Shown here: one piece after another, positions 5,781 through 60,705 of the stretch
How the letters are laid out: each line of letters opens with the position of its first letter
Numbering within the stretch: position 1 is the stretch's first letter
Source: an uncultured Bacteriovoracaceae bacterium
GTDB lineage: Bacteria; Bdellovibrionota; UBA1018
Direction: 5' to 3'
DNA length: 64,000 nucleotides
Assembly: GCA_964363305.1 (NCBI GenBank)
Contig: CAYIHX010000010.1
Coordinates: forward strand, 4,036-68,035
Notes under the pieces: model-generated
What the model saw: only the letters and a program-made list of their open reading frames with translations
Databases searched by the model: none
What the model was told of the DNA's origin: nothing
Translations under genes and position numbers: made by a program

Positions 5781-7652
5781 ATGGCCATTCAGATCGACCT
5801 CAAGCTTTCAGGGCATGGGTACTCCCAGGGCCCGGACGACCAGGAGCAAGGCCCGATCGTGGGCATTGATCTGGGGACGACCAATAGCCTGGTTTCGATC
5901 GTTCGGAATGGCGTGCCCGAGGTGCTCAAGACCGAATCTGGAGAGCGCCTGATTCCCTCCGTGGTCAGTGAGGTCGCTGGCCGGTTGGTTGTTGGGCGTG
6001 AGGCTCGGCATCGAAAAATGCGGGATCCCCGACACACGGTGTTTTCGGTGAAGCGATTGCTGGGTCGGGGGTTCGAAGACTTGGCTGAAGCGCAGGGAGA
6101 TCTTCCGTATACGGTCGTGGCAGATCGCGCAGGGGGCCCCTTGCGAGTGCAGATTGGCGACCGTTTCTTCACACCCGTTGAAATCTCGGCTATGATTCTT
6201 CGCGAGCTAAAAGCTGCCGCAGAGAAGTCACTCGGCCGCGCCGTCAAACGCGCGGTCGTCACGGTACCGGCCTATTTCAACGATGCCCAGCGGCAGGCCA
6301 CCCGAACGGCAGGTCGGCTGGCGGGTCTCGACGTGTTGCGAATCGTGAACGAGCCGACGGCGGCCGCTTTGGCCTACGGGCTCGATCGAAAGAAGGAAGG
6401 CCTGATCGCCGTTTATGACCTCGGGGGCGGGACCTTCGATGTCTCGATTCTGCGGCTTCACGGCGGGATTTTCGAGGTGCTTGCTACGCGCGGAGACACG
6501 CGGTTGGGGGGCGATGATATTGACCTTGTCGTCGCGCGCCAGTTCTCGCAGCAAATCAGCGCGCAATTTGGCGTCGAGCCGTTTGGAGATCCGAATCTGC
6601 AGGCGGAACTCATCGAGCGCTGCGAGCAGGCAAAAATTCAACTCGCCGAAGCTCAGAGCTCGATCATTCGGATGGAGATCCCGGGCAAGGGAACCTTCGT
6701 GGCCGAGCTGACCCGTGCGCAGTTTGAAGAATGGGTGCGGCCGGTGCTGGAACGAACGCGCGAGCCGTGCCAGCAGGCACTGGCAGACGCGGGTCTGACT
6801 TTCGAGCAACTTTCAGATGTCATCCTGGTCGGTGGTCCGACTCGTTTGAGAGTGGTGCAGGATGTAGCGCGCTCTATTTTTTCCCGAGAGCCGAACACGT
6901 CGCTCAATCCGGACGAGGTGGTCGCACAGGGCGCCGCTATTCAGGCGGACATTTTGGCGGGCAACAATCAGGAGCTGCTGCTTCTGGATGTCGTGCCTCT
7001 TTCGCTCGGCATGGAGACCTATGGAGGCATCGTCTCCGTTCTGGTTCCGCGGAACACCCGCATTCCGACCGTTGCGCGCGAGACCTTTACGAACTTCGTC
7101 GATAACCAGACGGGCGTGGATATTCATATTCTCCAGGGTGAGCGCGAGCGAGTTGCTGATAATCGTTCGCTGGCACGTTTCAAGCTCACGGGCCTCGGGC
7201 CAAAGCCTGCCGGGTTCCACCGTATCGAGGTGACTTACCTCATCGACGCGGATGGCATTCTGAACGTTTCAGCGCGAGATCTACACACTGGCCTGGAGCA
7301 ATCGGTGGAGGTTCGTCCCACCTTTGGTTTGTCTGACGCGCAGGTCGAAGATATGCTTCTCGCGTCGCTTGAGCACGCTGAGGAGGACGTGGGTTTTCGC
7401 AAGTTGGTAGACGCCCGGAACGAGGCCGAGCCTATTTTGCGCCAAACCGAAAAGGCGCTCTCTCAGGGAAAAAAACTCCTTTCGGATGAAGAGTATCATT
7501 CGATCGAGCAGCGTATCTCTGGGCTCAAGGTGGCGCTCGGCGGGAGCGACTCAGAGTTGATTCGAGAGGCGAAGGCGGCACTCGATCAAGCGACGGTGAA
7601 TATGGCGGAGTTGTTACTCAAGGATGCGATGACGCAAGCGAGGAGAAGATGA
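5781..7652 (+). CDS. hscA: Fe-S cluster chaperone HscA (Hsp70 family)
   Basis: Hsp70 signatures [19 protein letters not shown] and VILVGGPTR. 623 aa, in isc operon context. Confidence 0.9.
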
Positions 7653-7957
7653 TGTCCAAGCGATGGAAGGTGACTTTTCAGCCGACTCAACAAACAGTTG
7701 AGGCGAATGACGGTGATACGCTGCTTGAGGTGGCCATCGCGAACGATGTGCCGCTCATGCACGCCTGCGGTGGGTTCTGCGCCTGCACGACTTGTCATGT
7801 GAAGGTCGTGGCGGGCCCCCAGAGCCTCTCGACGGCTGAGCCGGATGAACTGGATCGGATGGAAGGCGTCGAGGGTTATGCCGATGCTTCGCGTTTGGGT
7901 TGCCAGGCGAAAGTGCACGGCGACGTGACAGTCGAGATTCTCAACCTGGATCGCTAG
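7649..7957 (+). CDS. fdx: 2Fe-2S ferredoxin (Fdx, adrenodoxin type)
   Basis: Cys ligands in [13 protein letters not shown] with a distal C in LGCQ. ATGA overlap with hscA. Confidence 0.9.
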
Positions 7958-8994
7958 CTCTTGGCGGCGAAGACGGTCTGCGTCGGATAGGCGAAGTCGA
8001 TCTTCATTTGGTTGAAGGTATTGAAGATCTGCCAGTTGATCTCCTGCTGGTGGTCCATGAAGCGACCGTAGTCGGAGGTGAGAATCCAGTAGACCGTTTC
8101 GAAATCCAGGGACGAGGATCCAAAGGTTTTGAAATGGGCGCGATCGAAGCGCACCTCGGGTTGACGTGCTATGATCTCGCGCAGAATGCCGGGAATTTTT
8201 TTCACCTGTTCGGGCGAGGTCTGGTACGTCACGCCCAGGGCGAGCGTCACGCGACGCTCCTGCATCCGTTTGAAGTTGTGAATCCGGCTCTGGAGCAAGG
8301 CGGAGTTCGGGTAGATGAGTTGCTCGCCGGTCAGCGCCCGCACGCGAGTGGTCTTGAGGCCGATGTGTTCGACCGTTCCTGAGATGTTATCGACTAAAAT
8401 GGAGTCGCCGACGATAAACGGCTTATCGAGCACGATCGTGAGCGAGCTGAAGAGATCGCCCAGAATATTTTGCGCCGCGAGGGCGACGGCAATGCCGCCG
8501 ACACCGAGGCCCGCCACTAATGCGGAGATATTCACGCCGAGGTTGTTCAGGCCCAGCATGACGAGCGTGGAGTAGAGGCCCGCTTGGGCGAGCGTGCTGA
8601 TCAGACCCACCGTATTCTTGATCGATTCATCACCGTCGCCGCGTTTGAGGAAGGTATGTTCGATCCAGAATCGGAGCCAGATGTTGCCCCACGCTCCGGC
8701 CTGGAGAAGGCTTCCGATCATCAAGGCGCGAGAAAAGGTCAAGTCGACGGTGGGAGAAAGATCGAGCGGTATGGAGGCGAGGAAGAGGGCAAGCGTGAGG
8801 AGAAAAATGCGAGATACTTTTTCACTCATCGGTCGGACGACCGCGGGACCTCGTGCAAAGCGAAGGGCAAGGAGGTGGGCGGTGCCTCGCAACCCAAAAT
8901 AAAGAACAGCGAAAAGAATCGGTGTCAGGACCCAGAGGTAGATCGGGTTTCCCAGCCAGCTTACGTCGATCCAGTTATGAATGAGTTCCTGCAT
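7954..8994 (-). CDS. Mechanosensitive ion channel (MscS family)
   Basis: 346 aa with multiple N-terminal TM helices, then the MscS beta-domain pattern (LDKPFIVGDSI, GTVEHIGLKTTRVR). Confidence 0.85.
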   Translation of the reverse strand: MQELIHNWIDVSWLGNPIYLWVLTPILFAVLYFGLRGTAHLLALRFARGPAVVRPMSEKVSRIFLLTLALFLASIPLDLSPTVDLTFSRALMIGSLLQAGAWGNIWLRFWIEHTFLKRGDGDESIKNTVGLISTLAQAGLYSTLVMLGLNNLGVNISALVAGLGVGGIAVALAAQNILGDLFSSLTIVLDKPFIVGDSILVDNISGTVEHIGLKTTRVRALTGEQLIYPNSALLQSRIHNFKRMQERRVTLALGVTYQTSPEQVKKIPGILREIIARQPEVRFDRAHFKTFGSSSLDFETVYWILTSDYGRFMDHQQEINWQIFNTFNQMKIDFAYPTQTVFAAKS

Positions 8995-52925: not shown

Positions 52926-53119
52926 AGGCGCGGTCACGTGGGCTTTTTCAGCTCATCTTTCTGCTTGTCTTCGTTTTCGTCCTGATTCGTTTTTTTCCTG
53001 TCCTAGCGCGGATCGCCCAGGCGGCCGCGCTGGGCAGCGTTGAATTAGGGTGGATCATCCTCGTCTTTGCCCTGGGGGGCTGGCTGGTCTGGGTGCTGAG
53101 CAAGCGAAATTCAGGTTGA
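52922..53119 (+). CDS. Small two-TM membrane protein
   Basis: 65 aa, ATGA overlap with the SPFH gene, two hydrophobic helices. Confidence 0.5.
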   Translation: MKARSRGLFQLIFLLVFVFVLIRFFPVLARIAQAAALGSVELGWIILVFALGGWLVWVLSKRNSG

Positions 53120-53749
53120 GCCTTTGAGGGGCTTGAGCCGAAAGGCGTTTTCCTTCGTTTCCGGCGCGAAAAAGCGCTCGATTTCGAAGCACGATGCGTA
53201 GTGTTCGCGCACTTCCTCTTCGGGAACGCGAAAGGGAGGGCCGGCCGTATGGTCGGCCGGGAATTCTGGCGTGATGAGGAGCATCTGCTTGCGTTGGCCG
53301 ATCGGCCGACTTGCCAAGAGGTGGGCGACATACCGCAGTCGAAGCTCCGGCGGGAGCGCGATGAGAGCGGCTCGATCGTAGAGGAATTCGCAGCCTGCCC
53401 AGGCCTGAGCGGGGACGGCAAAAAAATCGCCGCACCAAAGGGTGATGCCGAGCCCTTCGTAGATATCCCACTCGCCTTGCTTTCGTTTTTCATAAGGGAG
53501 GCCATTCTCCTGAAAGAAAGCCTCGCAAGCGAGGGGGCTGAGCTCAATGCCGATCACCTCGTGGCCTTGGTCACTGAGCCAGAGGAGATCCTTTGATTTT
53601 CCGCAGAGCGGCACCATGACTTTTCCGGGGGGCAGATCGCCGAAGTACTGGATGAGGAGGGGGTGCGGGGCATCTCGGTGCCAGCCGATTTCGCCGGTTT
53701 TCCATCTTGCGAGCCAGAAGGATGAGTCCATGGGAACCATTGGTAGCAC
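53111..53749 (-). CDS. Thiopurine S-methyltransferase (TPMT) family methyltransferase
   Basis: FWLARWKTGEIGWH N-terminus and SAM motif VPLCGKSKDLLWLSDQGHEVIGIELS. Confidence 0.85.
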   Translation of the reverse strand: MLPMVPMDSSFWLARWKTGEIGWHRDAPHPLLIQYFGDLPPGKVMVPLCGKSKDLLWLSDQGHEVIGIELSPLACEAFFQENGLPYEKRKQGEWDIYEGLGITLWCGDFFAVPAQAWAGCEFLYDRAALIALPPELRLRYVAHLLASRPIGQRKQMLLITPEFPADHTAGPPFRVPEEEVREHYASCFEIERFFAPETKENAFRLKPLKGST

Positions 53750-53809
53750 GATGATGCGCCGAGCATCAAAAGGGTGTCAGACACCCCTTGATGATGGTAA
53801 AGCTGAGCC

Positions 53810-54676
53810 GTGGCAGAAATCATCCCCGCGCAGAATCTCAGGGCCTGGCGAAACATCGACCGCCTCCGCATGGCGGCCGGGCTGTCGCGCGGCGATCTCG
53901 CCGAGGTGATGGATGTGCGGCAGTCCGAGCTGGACGGATTTCGGCGGGGCACTCGGGCGATCACGGATAGCGAGGCTCGGAATGTCCTCGATTTTTTCCA
54001 GGTGCCGGAATCAGCGATCGACTCGATCGACAGCGTGGATCTCGGCGTTGTCAGCCGCCGCTTTCAGGGCGATCAGCTGGCGATCCCTGAGCGGTATCTA
54101 CTGAAGAACTCGAGCCGGATGCGGGTCTTGAATGACATCATGAGGTGGGTCCACGCCAACCTCGGGGAGGACGCCTTCTTCTGGATCTTGCAGCAATTTC
54201 AGATCCCGTTTTTCGCTTTGGCCGCGCAGGATACGGAGATTAGTTTGAATTTAGTGAAGGAGCTCTGCACCTTGCTTCGTCAGTCCGGGGCGCGGGACCG
54301 GGACTTCGTGAATATGGGGATGGAGGCGCTGGAGATTCACCGGGGTATGGAGGTGGGTACGATGTTCGCTTCGGCACGATCTTCGGGTGAAGCGATTGAG
54401 GTGCTGGTTGCGCAAGTATTGAAACGGTTTGACACGAACTGCGCGTATAGCTTGTCCAGTCTCGACTCGCTGGGGGCAACAATTCGAATCGAGCCACGAT
54501 CAGAAACACAGGACTCTTTGGGGTCTAGGACCCCAGGCAGTCAGGAATGCTGTTTGACCCGAGACGGTCGGATCCGAATTGTGCCAGCGTTCGCGGGTTT
54601 TGCCGCGGCCTTCGCCGTCCACTCCATGTGCATTCATCGCGGCGACCCGCACTGCGAAAGCAAGCTATTTTTCTAG
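53810..54676 (+). CDS. XRE-like HTH regulator with C-terminal V4R-like ligand-binding domain (paralog A)
   Basis: HTH segment NLRAWRNIDRLRMAAGLSRGDLAEVMDVRQSELDGFRRG. The C-terminal end FDTNCAYS...CIHRGDPHCES resembles the V4R terminal E-x-C-x3-GD-x2-C-x-F pattern. Paralogous to 55554-56384. Confidence 0.6.
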   Translation: MAEIIPAQNLRAWRNIDRLRMAAGLSRGDLAEVMDVRQSELDGFRRGTRAITDSEARNVLDFFQVPESAIDSIDSVDLGVVSRRFQGDQLAIPERYLLKNSSRMRVLNDIMRWVHANLGEDAFFWILQQFQIPFFALAAQDTEISLNLVKELCTLLRQSGARDRDFVNMGMEALEIHRGMEVGTMFASARSSGEAIEVLVAQVLKRFDTNCAYSLSSLDSLGATIRIEPRSETQDSLGSRTPGSQECCLTRDGRIRIVPAFAGFAAAFAVHSMCIHRGDPHCESKLFF

Positions 54677-55431
54677 GCCGCCCGTTTGGCATCCACTGGT
54701 TTTGGAAAAGGTCTGTAGTGCCCAATTTCGAGGCGCTTTTCCCAAGCATTCGAATATTTTTGGGCCCATTCTTCCGCTTGTGGAGGGACGGAATCGATAT
54801 GCAGAGCTAGGGTCGGATCTCCCGCGAGGGGAGGAAAGGAAAATGAGGGAAGTTCTTGACCCGTACGGACGTCTCTCAATCGCTTATAGCCAATAAGTTG
54901 CAGGGTGAGAGGCGCTTTTGCTTTTACTGATCCGCCGATGAGCGATTCGTTAACGCGAAACGTCTTAGTGTGGAGAACATGGGAGGCGACTGAGAGTTCG
55001 GTGAGAAGTTCATGAGATCCGGGGTTTACCCTGAAGTCAGGGTCGACGGTCCAGCTGCTGGTATATCCAATCGACATTCCTCGCCGAGACGCAGACTCGA
55101 TGATGACCTCCGCACTCCTTTTATGCGCATCGCTCGCAGAATTGAAAAGGGCCAGTCCATTAAAGGGGAGACCGTATTGCTCGCAGGTCGCTTTTTCGAT
55201 GAATTTATAAGACATGATTGGCCGTCTCATTCCGTCGATTTCAGTAAACGTGATGATGTGGGTTCCGATCCAGTCATAGGTATCGAGGGGAAGGACTCGA
55301 TGGGCATCATAGTATTTTCCAAAACCACGCCTCTTGATATCGATGACCTCAAGCATTGCCGCCTGCGTTTCAGGCTGGTCCCAGTAGAGAAAGGGGTGGT
55401 GTAGTACGGTGAAACTAATGCGTTGGTTCAT
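54673..55431 (-). CDS. Cytoplasmic hypothetical protein, weakly acyl-HSL/N-acyl-amino-acid synthase-like (GNAT-type fold suspected)
   Basis: 252 aa, AGGAG RBS 6 nt upstream of ATG 55431, no TM or signal. Segments KRRGFGKYYDAHRVLPLDTYD and SSWTVDPDFR loosely resemble LuxI-family blocks. The functional call is tentative. Confidence 0.5.
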   Translation of the reverse strand: MNQRISFTVLHHPFLYWDQPETQAAMLEVIDIKRRGFGKYYDAHRVLPLDTYDWIGTHIITFTEIDGMRRPIMSYKFIEKATCEQYGLPFNGLALFNSASDAHKRSAEVIIESASRRGMSIGYTSSWTVDPDFRVNPGSHELLTELSVASHVLHTKTFRVNESLIGGSVKAKAPLTLQLIGYKRLRDVRTGQELPSFSFPPLAGDPTLALHIDSVPPQAEEWAQKYSNAWEKRLEIGHYRPFPKPVDAKRAA

Positions 55432-55553
55432 GGCGGTCTCCTAGAATCCTCACCGACTTCTCGGAAGCGTCCGGCGCCGGACTGAAGAAAGAAATCTTAA
55501 CTCCCAGAGTGGCTGAGAAAGATTTAGTGTTGGCGTCTCGAGGGAGCGGCAGC

Positions 55554-56384
55554 ATGGCTTTGGCGACATGGCAAATAGTTGACGAAATCGGCGACAGGGT
55601 GGGGATTCGAAAAACCGAGTTGCTCGCCCGCATCGGCATTGCGCCGTCGGAATACTGGCAAATGCGCTCGAAAAGTATGTTTGTCGATCGTGAGTTTCTC
55701 GGGAAGCTGACCAAGAGCGTTTCACTCAATCCGGCCGACTTGCCCCGAAAATTTCATCAGGTGTTCGAGGCGAGTCCAGTGATTCCCCATGAGTACAGGG
55801 AGCCTGCGACGGTTTCAGTGGGACTGATCCAAGATATCATTGAGTGGGTCGAGATGATGAACCCGGCGATCACCGCCGACGTTCTCGAAAGTCTCCAATT
55901 GGATGAGCGCTTTCTTTCGTTGCCGACCTGGGTTCGGGTAAACACCTTTCTTCAGGTGAATCTTCTCGATGTGTTATCGGCTCGGTACGGATGGCATACC
56001 GATATGCTCTGCGGGCTGGGGGCTCGCACTTATTTCAAGTATCGAAATACCGCGGTGGGAGACGAAATCAGCAAGGGCAGGACGACGAAGGAATGCGTTG
56101 AAATCGCCTTTGGAAGCGTCATAGAGAATTTTGACACCAACCATGACTACTCGATCAGGCGCGTGGACGATCGCTCGTGTGTGCTTCGTGCGACTGTCAG
56201 AGAGCAGGCAAAAAGCCTGATGAAGCGGAAGGTCATCGGGTCGAAGCTCGCTTGTTGGGCGAGGATATGCAGGTGTACGGTTGTGCCGAGATTCGGAGGC
56301 CATCGGCCGTATTCTCGTGTGCGGGAGCTGAAGTGCATTCACGATGGCGACGCTTTTTGCGAAGCGCGTTTTTCCGACCACTAG
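55554..56384 (+). CDS. XRE-like HTH regulator with C-terminal V4R-like ligand-binding domain (paralog B)
   Basis: ATG 55554 has a GGGAG RBS (the ORF opens at GTG 55509). HTH ATWQIVDEIGDRVGIRKTELLARIGIAPSEYWQMR. C-terminal FDTNHDYS...ELKCIHDGDAFCEARF. Confidence 0.6.
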   Translation: MALATWQIVDEIGDRVGIRKTELLARIGIAPSEYWQMRSKSMFVDREFLGKLTKSVSLNPADLPRKFHQVFEASPVIPHEYREPATVSVGLIQDIIEWVEMMNPAITADVLESLQLDERFLSLPTWVRVNTFLQVNLLDVLSARYGWHTDMLCGLGARTYFKYRNTAVGDEISKGRTTKECVEIAFGSVIENFDTNHDYSIRRVDDRSCVLRATVREQAKSLMKRKVIGSKLACWARICRCTVVPRFGGHRPYSRVRELKCIHDGDAFCEARFSDH

Positions 56385-56929
56385 GTGCCGGTCCTGCTCG
56401 TCTTTTTTGGTTTCGTTCCGAAGGATTCGGGCAAAGTGTCGCGCTCTTTTCGTCGGCTTTGCGCAATCGCATCGCAAGCGGAGATGAGCCGGTTTTGGAT
56501 TTCCAGGAGTTCGTGATCCCGAAACCCCGAGCTCGCCAGGGCCGCGACGCGGGCGAGACCTTCGGTGCCGGCCGCTTGAGCTAAGGAGGCGAGTCCGACG
56601 TTTTGGTGCGGCAATGGGTGGGCGGGGTCGTACTCGCGCGGGGGATACTCATTCCTGGTTCGGGCGAGCTCTTCGCGGATCGCTTCTCGGACGCCGGCAG
56701 AGAGCCGAACCTCTTCGGTCTGCGTCGGCTTGATCATTTCCCAGGGGTGGATGCCGAGGGCTTCGGCTAGGCGATCGAGGGTCTCGAGCGAGGGAGAGGT
56801 TTCGCCCGAGAGGTATCGTTGCAACTGTGGGGGTTTAAGGGCCGCTTTTCGAGCCAGCTCCGATATCGATCCATAGGGCTTCGTGGCTGCCCGCAACAGA
56901 TTCAGTAGATGTTTTGCACTTTGAGACAT
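56381..56929 (-). CDS. XRE-family HTH transcriptional regulator
   Basis: N-terminal HTH (GSISELARKAALKPPQLQRYLSGETSPSLETLDRLAEALG). 182 aa. Confidence 0.8.
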   Translation of the reverse strand: MSQSAKHLLNLLRAATKPYGSISELARKAALKPPQLQRYLSGETSPSLETLDRLAEALGIHPWEMIKPTQTEEVRLSAGVREAIREELARTRNEYPPREYDPAHPLPHQNVGLASLAQAAGTEGLARVAALASSGFRDHELLEIQNRLISACDAIAQSRRKERDTLPESFGTKPKKTSRTGT

Positions 56930-56945
56930 GAGATGACTTACCTTA

Positions 56946-56979
56946 AACTAAATAGTTACAAACTAACCACTTATTAGTT
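56946..56979. promoter_or_regulatory. Four AACTA/TAGTT half-sites in a divergent promoter region (candidate operator)
   Basis: AACTA 56946-56950, TAGTT 56953-56957, AACTA 56961-56965, TAGTT 56975-56979. They lie in the AT-rich 160-bp spacer between the XRE gene and the cold-shock-like gene. Confidence 0.35.
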
Positions 56980-57089
56980 ATATCTAGAGGCATGACAGAG
57001 ATTATACGCACTGAAGCCCTCGCTTCGCCCACGAAAGTCTCGCCGACGTCCCACCAGGTCGCAAGCTGAACTTTTTTTGAGGAGGCCTG

Positions 57090-57398
57090 ATGAAAGCGAA
57101 GCGGCTCAAAGGGATCGTCAAGTACTGGAATGCACTCAAAGGCTTCGGTTTCATCCGGACCGAAGGCCAGGAGGGGGTGGAGGTCGAGGTTGTTCCAGGC
57201 GAGCTTAGCCCCGTCGCCAAGAATTTTCGGAGGGTCGACTCTGCTGTCGCGCAGAGGACGGCTGCGAATATCCTGAGATCAAAGAGCATCGAAGTACTTC
57301 TCGAGGCGGCCATCGAAAACGAGATCTCCGACTTGGAGCTGGGAAAGCGCTTGAACGATCTGATTCGGGCTTCGGGGGGGTGGAGACTGTCCGATTGA
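57090..57398 (+). CDS. Atypical cold-shock-domain-like protein
   Basis: GGAGG RBS. The N-terminus KGIVKYWNALKGFGFI carries the RNP1-like KGFGFI motif, but no DVFVHFS-type RNP2 follows. It has a helical-looking C-terminal extension. Confidence 0.55.
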   Translation: MKAKRLKGIVKYWNALKGFGFIRTEGQEGVEVEVVPGELSPVAKNFRRVDSAVAQRTAANILRSKSIEVLLEAAIENEISDLELGKRLNDLIRASGGWRLSD

Positions 57399-57501
57399 AG
57401 GAGAGTGACAGGAGCTGCGCGAGACCATCCGTGAAGTCGTGCGGGAGGAATTGGCTAAGGCGTCTTGAGGGGATGACTGTCGGCTGAGGTGCTCATTGTG
57501 A

Positions 57502-58410
57502 TCAGCGAAGCAAGCCATCCCAGACCGCTCTCGCGGCCGGTGGAAATTGGTGAGTGGTTCGAGCTGCATTCAGCCAAACGCTGACGATCCATGGTCGCCG
57601 CTTGTCCAAGCGATGCTCGATCAGCGTGCCTGCGGCCAGTTCAGCGGCGATGACATGTCGGGGCACAATGGCGCATCCCACCCCACTGAAAACCATTTGG
57701 AGCACATGATCCAAATTCGATCCGAACACGCGGATGCGGGTTTTCACGCGCCGCTGCTGATGATGTTTTAACCAGCCTTCGATCAGGAGCGGCTTCTGAT
57801 AATAGTCAACCACGGGCAGCTCACTCAGCTCGCCGGTGCAAAGGTGACGATACCTGGAAGGGACTGCCAGAATCAGATTCTCCTCGCGAAGCCGTACGCT
57901 CCGGATCCGTCGATTCCACTTCCGCAAGGGTTGCAGCGAAAGCGCCATTTCCAGATTATTTTTCTGCAGGCCCTCCGCGAGCTCAGCATGCGCGAGAAAG
58001 CGCAGCCGAAGTTGCAGTTCGGGACAATCCAGGAGCATCGCACCCAATCCGTTTCCAAGCGATACGGCCGGGTATCCCGGAGGCATGCCTAGTGTCACGC
58101 GTCCCCGCACCAGCGCAGGCTCATCGCGCACCTCTTCCAGGACGGACTTCAATCCTTGTTCGTTCTGTCTGACTTGCTGCAAGATCCGTCGCCCCGCCGC
58201 AGTCAGCTCCAATCGAATCCCCGACCGGATAAAGAGCTGAACGCCCAGGCCGCGTTCAAGGCTCGTAACGCTTTGGCTGACCGCGGAAGGCGTCCTGAGA
58301 AGTTTTTCTCCCGCCTCGCGCATGGACGAGGATTCCGCGACAACCCGAAATACGTGGAGTTTATTGAGGTCCAGTTCGTTCAGTTTCACTGAACGGTTCG
58401 TATAATCCAT
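57502..58410 (-). CDS. LysR-family transcriptional regulator
   Basis: N-terminal HTH LNKLHVFRVVAESSSMREAGEKLLRTPSAVSQSVTSLE. 302 aa. Divergent from the folate cluster. Confidence 0.9.
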   Translation of the reverse strand: MDYTNRSVKLNELDLNKLHVFRVVAESSSMREAGEKLLRTPSAVSQSVTSLERGLGVQLFIRSGIRLELTAAGRRILQQVRQNEQGLKSVLEEVRDEPALVRGRVTLGMPPGYPAVSLGNGLGAMLLDCPELQLRLRFLAHAELAEGLQKNNLEMALSLQPLRKWNRRIRSVRLREENLILAVPSRYRHLCTGELSELPVVDYYQKPLLIEGWLKHHQQRRVKTRIRVFGSNLDHVLQMVFSGVGCAIVPRHVIAAELAAGTLIEHRLDKRRPWIVSVWLNAARTTHQFPPAARAVWDGLLR

Positions 58411-58453: not shown

Positions 58454-59080
58454 ATGATCTCTATCGAACCTAAATTGCTCTCTCACCCGTGGTACGCGAA
58501 ATGGGAATGTGGCGCGCTGCCTGTAGACTCCATTCGCTTTTATGCCCGCGAATATTACTGGCAGGTCGCTCATTTTCCACGCTATTTGAGCAGGCTGCAC
58601 TCACAGATCGACGATCTGGAGCAGCGGCAGGTGATTCTCGGCAACCTCCTCGACGAGGAGAACTCGGAATTTCCCCACCCGGTGCTTTGGCTCGACTTCG
58701 CCGAAGCCCTTGGCCTGGATCGCGCGGCCGTTCAGGCGGGAACGCCGGGCCCTGCGGCGCAAGAGCTCGTCAGGGAGTTTCAGGCCCTCACGGCTTCAAG
58801 CCCGGCGGAAGGCTTGGGTGCCATCCTGGCATATGAGTCCCAGGTGCCGGAGGTTGCGCGATTCAAAACGAAATCGCTGAAACAACACTATCTCAGCAGC
58901 GAGATGGCGACGAAGGGCGCGCGGTTCTTTGCAGTGCACGAGGAGGCCGATGTTTGGCACACCCAGGCTTTGGAAGGAGTCATCGCGAAGTTTTCGGACG
59001 GGCAGAAGCATCAGGCGCGGGAAGGCGCGGCGCGGGCGTGCTCGGCGCTTTGGAGATTTCTCGATGCCATGCCGTATTGA
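58454..59080 (+). CDS. CADD/PqqC-like heme-oxygenase-fold di-iron protein (candidate non-canonical PABA synthase)
   Basis: HPWYAKWECGAL, FYAREYYWQVAHFPRYL, LGNLLDEENSEFPHPVLWLDFAEALG, FFAVHEEADVWH. Heads the folB-folKP-folC cluster. Confidence 0.7.
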   Translation: MISIEPKLLSHPWYAKWECGALPVDSIRFYAREYYWQVAHFPRYLSRLHSQIDDLEQRQVILGNLLDEENSEFPHPVLWLDFAEALGLDRAAVQAGTPGPAAQELVREFQALTASSPAEGLGAILAYESQVPEVARFKTKSLKQHYLSSEMATKGARFFAVHEEADVWHTQALEGVIAKFSDGQKHQAREGAARACSALWRFLDAMPY

Positions 59081-59411
59081 GCTCGCGGATATAGAGCTGA
59101 TGCTCCATATCGGCTGTACTGAGGAGGAGCGCGCGTCCCCACAACTTCTCCGCTTCCGCATGGTGGTGCGGAGCGTGGAAACTTTTCCAGCCAGCCGCAC
59201 TGATGAGCTTCAAGACACGCTGGACGTCAAGGCGCTTCGCGATCTGCTGATCACTTCCGCGGAAAAATCCAGGGTTCGAACTCTGGAGCGGCTCGGACAG
59301 CTTTTGGAATCCGGTTTTCGCCAGCGGTTTTCCATGGCGGGGTGTGAGTGGGAGATTGCGATCGAAAAAACCAAGTTCGGGTGGTCCTATGTTCATGCTT
59401 GGTCCTCATGA
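59064..59411 (+). CDS. folB: Dihydroneopterin aldolase-like (FolB family)
   Basis: Internal ATG 59064 (MPCRIELADIELMLHIGCTEEERASPQ). About 115 aa, with a FolB-type beta-alpha pattern and context. Confidence 0.75.
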   Translation: MPCRIELADIELMLHIGCTEEERASPQLLRFRMVVRSVETFPASRTDELQDTLDVKALRDLLITSAEKSRVRTLERLGQLLESGFRQRFSMAGCEWEIAIEKTKFGWSYVHAWSS

Positions 59412-60705
59412 ATTTATCGTGGGACTCGGTTCGAATAGTCCCCATGCCATCACGATGTTACGACAGGCTCGCCATGAGCTTCGGGCTCATCGACTGTTTC
59501 GGCTTCTCTCGTCGTCACCGATTTATGAATCCGATGCTTTGTTACCGCCCCACGCGCCCGTGAGCTGGAATCAGCCCTATTTAAACGCCGCCTGTCTCTT
59601 GGAGGCGGTCGCCCCTCAGTCGGCGCGGCTCATTGTGGAAATGCTGAAAGAGCTGGAGCGCTCTCTCGGACGTGCCGAATCGCCACGCTGGGCACCGCGC
59701 CCGATGGATCTCGATCTTCTTGCCTGGGGCGGGCCGGATATCAAAGACCCCTCGGCTTCGGTGCCCCATCCGGGGTTGGCGGAACGCCCGTTTGCCCTTC
59801 TTCCGGCGCAGGATTGCGTGGCTTTTCGGAAACCAGTCCAGCCCCACCCTTGGCGGTACTCTCATCATGAGCAAGTGCCGCAGAAAACCCGACCGTCTTC
59901 CGCCGTTTGGCCCGAAATCGTCGGAGTTTTGAACCTGACTTTAGGCTCATTCTCCGATGGCGGCTCGCTTCGTTCTCAGGCTGATGTTGAGTGCTCCGCC
60001 AGGAGGATGATCGCCGATGGCGCGACTGTGCTCGACATCGGAGCGGAGTCCACTCGGCCAGGCGCAAATCCGGTCTCCTGGCAGGAGGAGGTCGAACGGC
60101 TTGAATCCTCGCTGAGTGTCCTGTCCGCGTTAAAGAGAGAGCTTCACTTCAAGCTCAGCCTGGATTCACGTCATCCCGAGACCGTTTCGTGGTGCCTGGA
60201 AAAATTTCCACTCGATTGGATCAATGATGTCGAGGGTTTTTCAAATCCAAAAATGCTGGAGATCGCCGCCAGGTCGGAGTGTGACTTGGTCCTGATGCAT
60301 TCGCTCGGAATACCGCCGCGCCAGGATGCTGTACTCCCTCCCGATCGCGATCCGATCGCCGAGCTTTTAGCTTGGGGGACGGAGCGCGTCGGACAGCTCG
60401 CCAGAAGCGGCATTTCGCCCAGACGGATCATCTTTGATCCCGGCATTGGATTTGGCAAGAGTCCCGCTCAGAGTCTCGCCATCGTCCTGCGCGCACGCGA
60501 GCTGAATGCCCTCGCGACTCGGCTTCTGATGGGTCACTCCCGGAAGCGATTTCTCGATTTGACAGGAACCATTCCCGCGTCGGACCGGGATCTGGAGACC
60601 GCGCTGGTTACCGCGCGGATTGCCAATAGCGGAGTCGATTACGTGCGCGTGCATTCCCCTGGGATTCAGTCGAGGGCTCTGCGCATGGGTTCGAGGTTGA
60701 TGTGA
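59389..60705 (+). CDS. folKP: Bifunctional HPPK / dihydropteroate synthase (FolK-FolP fusion)
   Basis: HPPK half (VGLGSN, PIYESDA, RWAPRPMDLDLL, VPHPGLAERPF). DHPS half (VGVLNLTLGSFSDGG, DIGAESTRPG, IFDPGIGFGK, GHSRKRF). Confidence 0.9.
   Translation: MFMLGPHEFIVGLGSNSPHAITMLRQARHELRAHRLFRLLSSSPIYESDALLPPHAPVSWNQPYLNAACLLEAVAPQSARLIVEMLKELERSLGRAESPRWAPRPMDLDLLAWGGPDIKDPSASVPHPGLAERPFALLPAQDCVAFRKPVQPHPWRYSHHEQVPQKTRPSSAVWPEIVGVLNLTLGSFSDGGSLRSQADVECSARRMIADGATVLDIGAESTRPGANPVSWQEEVERLESSLSVLSALKRELHFKLSLDSRHPETVSWCLEKFPLDWINDVEGFSNPKMLEIAARSECDLVLMHSLGIPPRQDAVLPPDRDPIAELLAWGTERVGQLARSGISPRRIIFDPGIGFGKSPAQSLAIVLRARELNALATRLLMGHSRKRFLDLTGTIPASDRDLETALVTARIANSGVDYVRVHSPGIQSRALRMGSRLM

Follow-up and report, generated by a model that had tools for sequence, protein, structure and literature searches.

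The LuxI/LuxR-type pair easI/easR has a convergent arrangement (PMC7585371), and acyl-homoserine lactone synthases were not predicted in Bdellovibrionota, according to a comparative-genomics preprint (10.1101/2020.11.01.364414). In the sensor protein DmpR, C151, C177 and C185 form a zinc site (PMC7264223), and in MsvR the redox-relevant cysteines C206, C232 and C240 modulate redox-dependent DNA binding (PMC3729527). Here we analyze a 64,000-nucleotide stretch of a Bacteriovoracaceae contig (CAYIHX010000010.1; the window), in which a gene for an acyltransferase-like protein, enzyme C, lies between the genes of two paralogous regulators, A and B. A first-pass annotation, made from the letters alone, had proposed that the three genes could form a signal-synthase and dual-receptor circuit for which no described system was known. 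Full-text literature searches on V4R domains in Bdellovibrio or in quorum sensing, on autoinducer synthases of Bdellovibrionota and on LuxI-like GNATs in predators likewise found nothing on such a pairing. We know of no N-acyl amino acid synthase described with a dedicated V4R regulator partner.

The function of the locus is most likely that of a signal (or metabolite) synthase with one or more cognate ligand-sensing regulators. Such a synthase-receptor system fits because the two- or three-gene unit is compact, has a convergent layout and is strongly diversified. The superfamilies involved are known, i.e., GCN5-related N-acetyltransferases (GNATs), XRE-type helix-turn-helix (HTH) proteins and V4R/H-NOX domains; the two protein families and their fixed linkage appear to be undescribed.

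The predicted structure of enzyme C is that of a GNAT. The AlphaFold2 (AF2) model, based on a 142-sequence alignment, had a mean predicted local distance difference test score (pLDDT) of 95.4 and a predicted template-modelling score (pTM) of 0.91, and the order of its secondary structure elements is that of the GNAT core (beta1-alpha1-alpha2-beta2-beta3-beta4-alpha3-beta5-alpha4-beta6). All of the top 50 Foldseek matches in the PDB were GNAT-fold acyltransferases. The best matches were chains of FeeM (2g0b; E 4e-5, TM-score 0.47 by query length and 0.59-0.63 by target length), and the top neighbours also included the LuxI-type synthases BjaI (5w8g and 5w8a; 0.52-0.54 by query length and 0.60-0.63 by target length), LasI, EsaI, MesI and RpaI, with E values of 1e-4 to 2.5e-3 for these five. 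The GNAT/LuxI-like fold expected for the central gene was thus recovered, and the fold search gave no resemblance to an unrelated housekeeping enzyme.

At the sequence level, C had no match in Pfam, NCBIfam, PADLOC, PHROGs or the PDB sequences, and a word-indexed search of 5.8 billion proteins returned only C itself. An exhaustive HMMER search was required to uncover its family, which comprises at least 440 clusters (defined at 50% identity) at E<=1e-3, 257 of them at E<=1e-10. The members are single-domain proteins of about 250 amino acids (aa) with 23-36% identity to C, and those that carry any name are called 'hypothetical protein'. Near-invariant positions are K/R33, G36, Y/F37, P48, D50, D53, H58, K/R76, F90, H103, Y123, S126, T128, P131, R134, G181, W230 and R233; about a dozen of these near-invariant residues are polar, which argues for a working active site.

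The three blocks for which C had been likened to LuxI or N-acyl amino acid synthases (R-x2-F, LDTYD and SSWTVDPDFR) are all present, as R-R-G-F, LPLDTYD and SSWTVDPDFR. The likeness itself held for the fold and failed for Pfam membership and for the catalytic motif of strand beta4. An hhalign comparison of the C family with four LuxI-family sequences (LasI, checked against 1ro5; TofI, BjaI and RpaI, from PDB alignments) was weak, with a probability of 22.6%. It paired D50 and D53 with LasI D44 and D47, K/R76 with R70, and F90-P91 with F84-P85, and the C-family positions are conserved to 91-100% (D50, D53, K/R76, F90) and 76% (P91). The correspondence of K/R33-x3-Y/F37 to LasI R23-x3-F27 was made by eye only, and no counterpart of LasI W33 or E42 was located in the C family. 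Enzyme C is therefore best described, on the basis of its model and of profile comparisons, as belonging to an unmodelled GNAT family that is structurally nearest to the LuxI/FeeM branch and lies outside both of these sequence families.

The C-terminus of the family is also conspicuous. Of the 142 representatives, 97 end in -A-A (KAA in 45, RAA in 13), and C from the window ends in -R-A-A (54673-54681). This end resembles an ssrA/ClpXP-type degron, and the enzyme may therefore be proteolytically unstable.

The paralogy of A and B was confirmed by BLASTP (E 4e-18, 25% identity across 204 aa of the C-terminal domain) and by a family profile built without the window sequences, which matched A with 198 bits and B with 102 bits from end to end, including the HTH. 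Both proteins contain the FDTN-x2-YS block and the C-I-H-x-G-D-x2-C-E ending that had been noted in them, the B version of the latter reading CIHDGDAFC. Word-indexed homology searches with A and B returned only the query proteins, and relatives were taken from the neighbourhoods of C homologs. The proposed N-terminal XRE-like HTH is borderline in A (Pfam HTH_3, PF01381, 23.1 bits against a cutoff of 23) and has family-level support only in B, which alone gave no HTH_3 match. HTH_3 was found in 5 of 12 homologs and scored 48.2 bits with the family consensus, and the regulator-family profile matched solved XRE regulators (e.g., 3op9 at E 2e-6). The same profile weakly matched the zinc-site segment of MopR.

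In the AF2 model of A (pLDDT 86.7), the HTH has five helices and precedes a domain of about 195 residues. For this C-terminal domain the best Foldseek match was the Nostoc H-NOX protein 3tfd (E 6e-5, TM-score 0.71 by target length, root-mean-square deviation 3.9 A over 195 columns). The sensor domains of MopR (5kbh, 5kbg) and PoxR (5frx) followed with E values of 1.4e-3 to 6e-3, and palmitate-bound (palmitoylated) Bet3 was matched as well, so that the model places the domain in the H-NOX/V4R/Bet3 group of pocket domains. The Pfam V4R model (PF02830) matched 7 of 12 family members (best E 2.4e-5) and gave 25.4 bits (E 1.5e-5) with the consensus, under its gathering cutoff of 31; A and B themselves were not matched at E<=1. 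A near-invariant Cys triad with a spacing of 26 and 8 residues, the same as in the DmpR zinc site, is formed in A by C248, C274 and C282, with G278-D279 between the last two, and B has the equivalents (C-x25-C-x7-C). The V4R/H-NOX-like fold anticipated for the regulator C-termini is supported by these structural matches, the V4R matches and the triad.

Haem binding by the regulators is unlikely, because the haem-propionate motif Y-x-S-x-R of H-NOX proteins is replaced by Y213-S-L-S-S in A, Y-S-I-R-R in B and Y-S-L-E-K in the consensus, and the V4R Cys metal site is found instead. The strand taken as the presumable site of this motif is the one that carries it in H-NOX structures. Autoinducer-binding and GerE domains were found neither in A and B nor in any homolog.

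To place the arrangement in a wider context, 18 independent C-family modules were collected from contigs with representative matches, GTDB species genomes and JGI metagenomes. The GTDB and JGI scans used a degenerate DNA pattern for Y-x-S-S-W-T-I-D-P-x-x-R, and matches were filtered with local hidden Markov models. In 15 of the 18 modules the next gene downstream of the enzyme gene is that of an A-like regulator on the opposite strand, abutting or overlapping it, which bears out the co-localization that the first-pass annotation had left to be checked in other genomes. All 15 regulator-bearing modules are convergent, with 3' overlaps of 0-71 nt in the 11 for which the overlap was measured (a 4-nt CTAG or TTAA in 6 of these). 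The flanking genes differ between loci, the GC content of the module-bearing loci ranges from 38 to 59%, and the modules have no conserved neighbours among transporter, ligase or other biosynthetic genes. Pairwise identities have medians of about 30% among the enzymes and 27% among the regulators. The closest enzyme pairs (loci L019/L030 and L007a/b) are also the closest regulator pairs, which indicates that the cassette is inherited, moves and duplicates as a unit. Named source genomes were Bdellovibrionota in 5 of 6 cases (sources named as Bdellovibrio sp., Bdellovibrionota bacterium FG-1, Bdellovibrionales and Bacteriovoracaceae, and one contig binned as Nitrosovibrio), and tblastn found no plasmid homologs.

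A second regulator is present in 6 of the 15 regulator-bearing modules; the proposed dual receptor thus applies to a minority of the modules. Of the six second regulators, four group apart in a 'reg2' clade, whose members have a canonical HTH_3 and the motif C-x-[FH]-x-G-x3-C. Assignment of B to this subfamily was considered and rejected. Since B clusters with A and with the L005 regulator in the 'reg1' clade, its sequence suggests a lineage-specific duplicate that was relocated to the other side of C.

Several modules deviate in instructive ways. Two complete modules, each with two regulators, lie 2.7 kb apart on one contig of a metagenome-assembled genome (L007, 3331-8525; a run of Ns breaks the upstream regulator gene in the first of them). 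Their enzymes are 53% and their regulators 37% identical, so the whole module was duplicated and the regulators diverged faster. The contig labelled as a Nitrosovibrio sp. Nv4 metagenome-assembled genome (L019, CALPVV020000045.1, GC 42.8%) carries a typical module and a third, solo A-like regulator (7331-7999); as no other source genome carries a label outside Bdellovibrionota, misbinning is possible. L006 (4175-5865) and L042 (2915-4575) have, upstream of the enzyme gene and divergent from it, a pair of genes for a ThiF (E1-like) protein and a PALP protein (a pyridoxal phosphate enzyme), and ThiF genes also occur near two other family members (L007, 9978-10898; L041, 1-534). A sulfur or adenylation step may be connected with these modules, or the loci may simply share ancestry.

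In L017 (560-2974) the enzyme homolog is followed by a co-directional Haem_oxygenas_2 gene ('iron-containing redox enzyme'), which converges on a gene for a 91-aa XRE HTH protein preceded by a 247-aa gene without a Pfam match; to judge from its gene content, this context could be a split or alternative sensor. In L041 (5001-6290) the C domain is part of a 429-aa protein with an extension of about 160 aa that has no Pfam match. This gene has no V4R regulator, and its operon partners encode an MMPL transporter, a cyclic nucleotide monophosphate-binding protein, a methyltransferase and a flavoprotein.

Table 1. Genes and candidate control elements of the locus, with positions in the window.
Feature	Position	Strand	Description
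Inverted repeat AAAGGGTGTC-a-GACACCCCTT	53769-53789		10+10; repeat search; candidate operator for A
Regulator A	53810-54676	+	288 aa; XRE-type HTH and predicted H-NOX/V4R-type pocket domain; 'reg1' position, 3' end overlapping that of the convergent gene C
CTAG palindromic stop overlap	54673-54676		4 nt; convergent A/C; from the sequence
Enzyme C	54673-55431	-	252 aa; predicted GNAT-fold acyltransferase of unmodelled family
Perfect 14-bp palindrome GTCCGGCGCCGGAC	55469-55482		C-B divergent promoter region, -51 to -38 from C start; palindrome scan; candidate operator
Regulator B	55554-56384 (ATG) or from 55509 (GTG)	+	276 aa (ATG) or 291 aa (GTG); divergent A paralog
Gene D	56381-56929	-	182 aa
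Gene E	57090-57398	+	102 aa

The gene boundaries agree with those proposed earlier, including the tail-to-tail stop overlap of A and C and the divergence of C and B, whose spacer measures 77 bp with the GTG start of B and 122 bp with the ATG start. For A, the gene caller chose a shorter start that gives 268 aa and removes HTH helix 1; the longer GTG start is better supported by homologs and by the AF2 model. The DNA was obtained from a groundwater metagenome of the Hainich site, and proteins identical to those of the window occur only in assemblies from there. The two candidate operators of Table 1 may, from their sequence symmetry and position, be binding sites of the regulators. The chance expectation of a 14-bp palindrome in the C-B spacer was estimated at about 0.01-0.07, and the inverted repeat lies 21 bp upstream of the A start, in a 60-bp spacer common to A and a divergent thiopurine S-methyltransferase (TPMT) gene. 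A promoter and terminator scan gave matches at chance level only, and an Rfam search of positions 53000-58000 found nothing.

These observations can be combined in a mechanism. Enzyme C, as a LuxI/FeeM-like GNAT, would combine an acceptor that bears an amine with an acyl thioester (acyl-CoA or acyl-ACP) into a small hydrophobic acylated molecule. A and B would act as one-component transcription factors in which the XRE HTH contacts DNA and the H-NOX/V4R-type pocket, stabilized by a metal site of three cysteines (with Glu/His) as in DmpR, binds the product of C. Ligand binding would alter the occupancy of the palindromic operators upstream of C/B and of A, and this occupancy would determine how strongly the synthase and the two regulators are expressed. 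We give a little less than even weight to this reading, i.e., a self-contained enzyme-plus-sensor cassette conserved across Bdellovibrionota, in which C makes an acylated molecule that A and B sense. The wider proposal of a phylum-wide, highly diversified quorum-sensing-type system in these predatory bacteria, in which the acylated signal of a distant LuxI relative is read by XRE-H-NOX/V4R receptors, sometimes two, and serves between cells, is put forward more tentatively.

A number of results weigh against the cassette reading. Autoind_synth (PF00765) matched neither C nor any of 142 family members at E<=0.1, nor the family consensus at E<=10; FeeM (PF21926) matched 1 of 142 members at E 0.09 and Acetyltransf_5 (PF13444) 2 of 142 at E 0.035, both without a match to the consensus, which indeed matches no Pfam model. 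In strand beta4 the family has Y123-x-S-S-W-T128-x-x-P131-x-x-R134 in place of LuxI E101-x-S103-R104, and hhalign did not pair this motif with E-L-S-R. Generic N-acetyltransferases such as AAC(6') scored only slightly below LuxI and FeeM in the Foldseek search with C. V4R Cys triads can be redox or metal rather than ligand sensors, as in MsvR, and the first regulator of L019 lacks the triad cysteines and keeps the rest of the domain. No regulator is found beside three family members (L009, L017 and L041), no operator motif common to different loci was found, and a mirror-tree comparison of enzyme and regulator distances gave no correlation (Mantel r 0.09, p 0.29), a result that is uninformative because identities are saturated near 27-30%.

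The structural neighbours of both proteins also bear on a reading without any self-made signal, in which A and B detect a hydrophobic or aromatic compound that comes from outside the cell, such as from prey or the environment, and induce C to N-acylate or acetylate it, as a sensor-controlled modifying or detoxifying enzyme. The V4R sensor domains of MopR, PoxR and DmpR bind exogenous phenols, AAC(6')-Im and AAC(6')-Ib are among the top structural neighbours of C, and regulators are commonly paired with an enzyme under their control. However, a regulator and its target would be expected to lie divergently or in one operon, and strict convergence with overlapping stop codons is unusual for such a pair. 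The D-x-x-D, K/R and F-P positions conserved in the C family moreover align with the LuxI acceptor-binding region, albeit in the weak hhalign comparison, and no efflux or catabolic genes are conserved near the modules. We regard this explanation as unlikely, although it is the most probable of the alternatives.

Redox or metal sensing in the manner of MsvR, with the Cys triad detecting oxidants or metals and the GNAT acting in a stress response without an organic ligand, is improbable. The triad spacing of 26 and 8 residues is the same as in MsvR, whose cysteines modulate redox-dependent DNA binding (PMC3729527), and in the V4R region the NCBIfam MsvR model has a weak match to the regulator consensus (E 1.4e-4). 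The same triad, however, is a structural zinc site beside a ligand pocket in DmpR, the full H-NOX-like pocket domain of 195 residues is kept here, and the family member without the cysteines retains the rest of that domain. Redox sensing would also leave the tight linkage to a LuxI-like enzyme unexplained.

A partnership at the protein level, in which C acylates the regulator or another protein or forms a complex with the regulator, and no diffusible product is made, is very improbable. Many GNATs are protein lysine or N-terminal acetyltransferases, matches of Naa10 and NatA type occur in the Foldseek results of C, and the tight genetic linkage would suit such a role; yet the best structural neighbours of C are small-molecule acyltransferases, and the regulators retain a pocket domain typical of sensors of small ligands. 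Finally, although GNAT toxins paired with HTH antitoxins exist, the C family is highly diversified (440 clusters) and an XRE-type HTH is present, a toxin-antitoxin or other defence-type module can be all but dismissed, given genes that are convergent in 15 of 15 modules and not co-transcribed, an enzyme of 250 aa against about 170 aa for GNAT toxins, regulators of about 290 aa with a sensor domain, no PADLOC or PHROGs matches for C or the sensor domain, and no plasmid homologs.

Beyond the three genes, an XRE gene (D), an operator array and a cold-shock-like gene (E) had been listed as further parts of the locus; they are present but are not part of the conserved unit. D is XRE repressor-like (HTH_3, E 1e-9), and only the first 25 or so of the 102 residues of E are cold-shock-domain-like. 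The two genes diverge across 160 bp, and the AACTA/TAGTT array described earlier is found in this spacer as the palindromes AACTAAATAGTT and AACTAA...TTAGTT at 56945-56980. No homolog of D or E was found beside any other module. They were therefore rejected as module parts and, from the gene neighbourhoods, are taken to be a separate small regulatory pair outside the conserved cassette.

On the other side of A lies the TPMT family gene (53111-53749, minus strand; PF05724, E 8.5e-56). Gene calling split this stretch into two short genes in the sister assembly L001, pointing to a frameshift or an assembly difference in L001. Further downstream, at 58454-60705, a TENA_THI-4/Haem_oxygenas_2 (PqqC/CADD-like) gene lies directly upstream of folB and a fused folK-folP, followed by folC, a gene context as expected for a CADD-type p-aminobenzoate synthase replacing pabABC.

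Even in a conservative reading, the analysis defines two unannotated protein families in fixed genetic linkage, of which the enzyme family alone has at least 440 clusters at 50% identity, and the candidate operators open the way to direct experiments. If the cassette reading is true, this would be the first synthase/receptor signaling cassette described for Bdellovibrionota, and the C family would be a new branch of the LuxI/FeeM acyltransferases that diverged deeply from the others. The cassette would also add a new receptor architecture for acyl signals, in which V4R/H-NOX-type pockets are the cognate receptors of self-made signals, and would raise the question whether predators coordinate attack, prey exit or growth-phase switching chemically.

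Compared with described systems, the module resembles LuxI/LuxR in its compactness, with one GNAT-fold synthase-like gene and one or two genes for transcription factors of ligand-binding type, and it shares convergent, abutting or overlapping 3' ends with the pairs esaI/esaR and easI/easR. C is structurally near BjaI, LasI, EsaI, MesI and RpaI, and its family aligns D-x-x-D, basic and F-P positions with LasI D44/D47, R70 and F84-P85 (at the hhalign probability of 22.6%). Unlike LuxI, it has no Autoind_synth match and no E-x-S-R in beta4, and it is about 50 residues longer. A and B differ from LuxR in combining an XRE HTH with a V4R/H-NOX-like domain and in having no autoinducer-binding or GerE domain. 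With FeeM, the best Foldseek match, C shares faint Pfam hints in a few members and, if the mechanism holds, a hydrophobic N-acylated product, but the family does not belong to the FeeM or Acetyltransf_5 sequence families (1-2 of 142 members, E 0.03-0.09). The arrangement differs from type II GNAT toxin-antitoxin pairs since it is not a co-directional operon, C has about 250 aa instead of about 170 aa, and PADLOC gave no match.

For the regulators, H-NOX is the best overall structural match of the C-terminal 195 residues, but the regulators lack the haem-propionate Y-x-S-x-R and have a V4R Cys metal site instead. MsvR is likewise a one-component HTH and V4R protein with three conserved cysteines at the identical spacing of 26 and 8. 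In contrast, the regulator consensus scores 21.7 bits against a cutoff of 220 with the MsvR model (NF053755), in the V4R region only, and MsvR has another HTH type, comes from an archaeal lineage and controls oxidative-stress genes rather than an adjacent acyltransferase. The aromatic-compound sensors MopR, PoxR, DmpR and XylR are similar in the Foldseek comparison of the sensor domain, in the weak profile match to the MopR zinc site and in the Cys spacing of DmpR. Whereas those proteins are NtrC-type AAA+ sigma54 enhancer-binding proteins that sense exogenous phenols, here the pocket domain directly adjoins an XRE HTH in one protein, whose gene is linked to that of a synthase-like protein.

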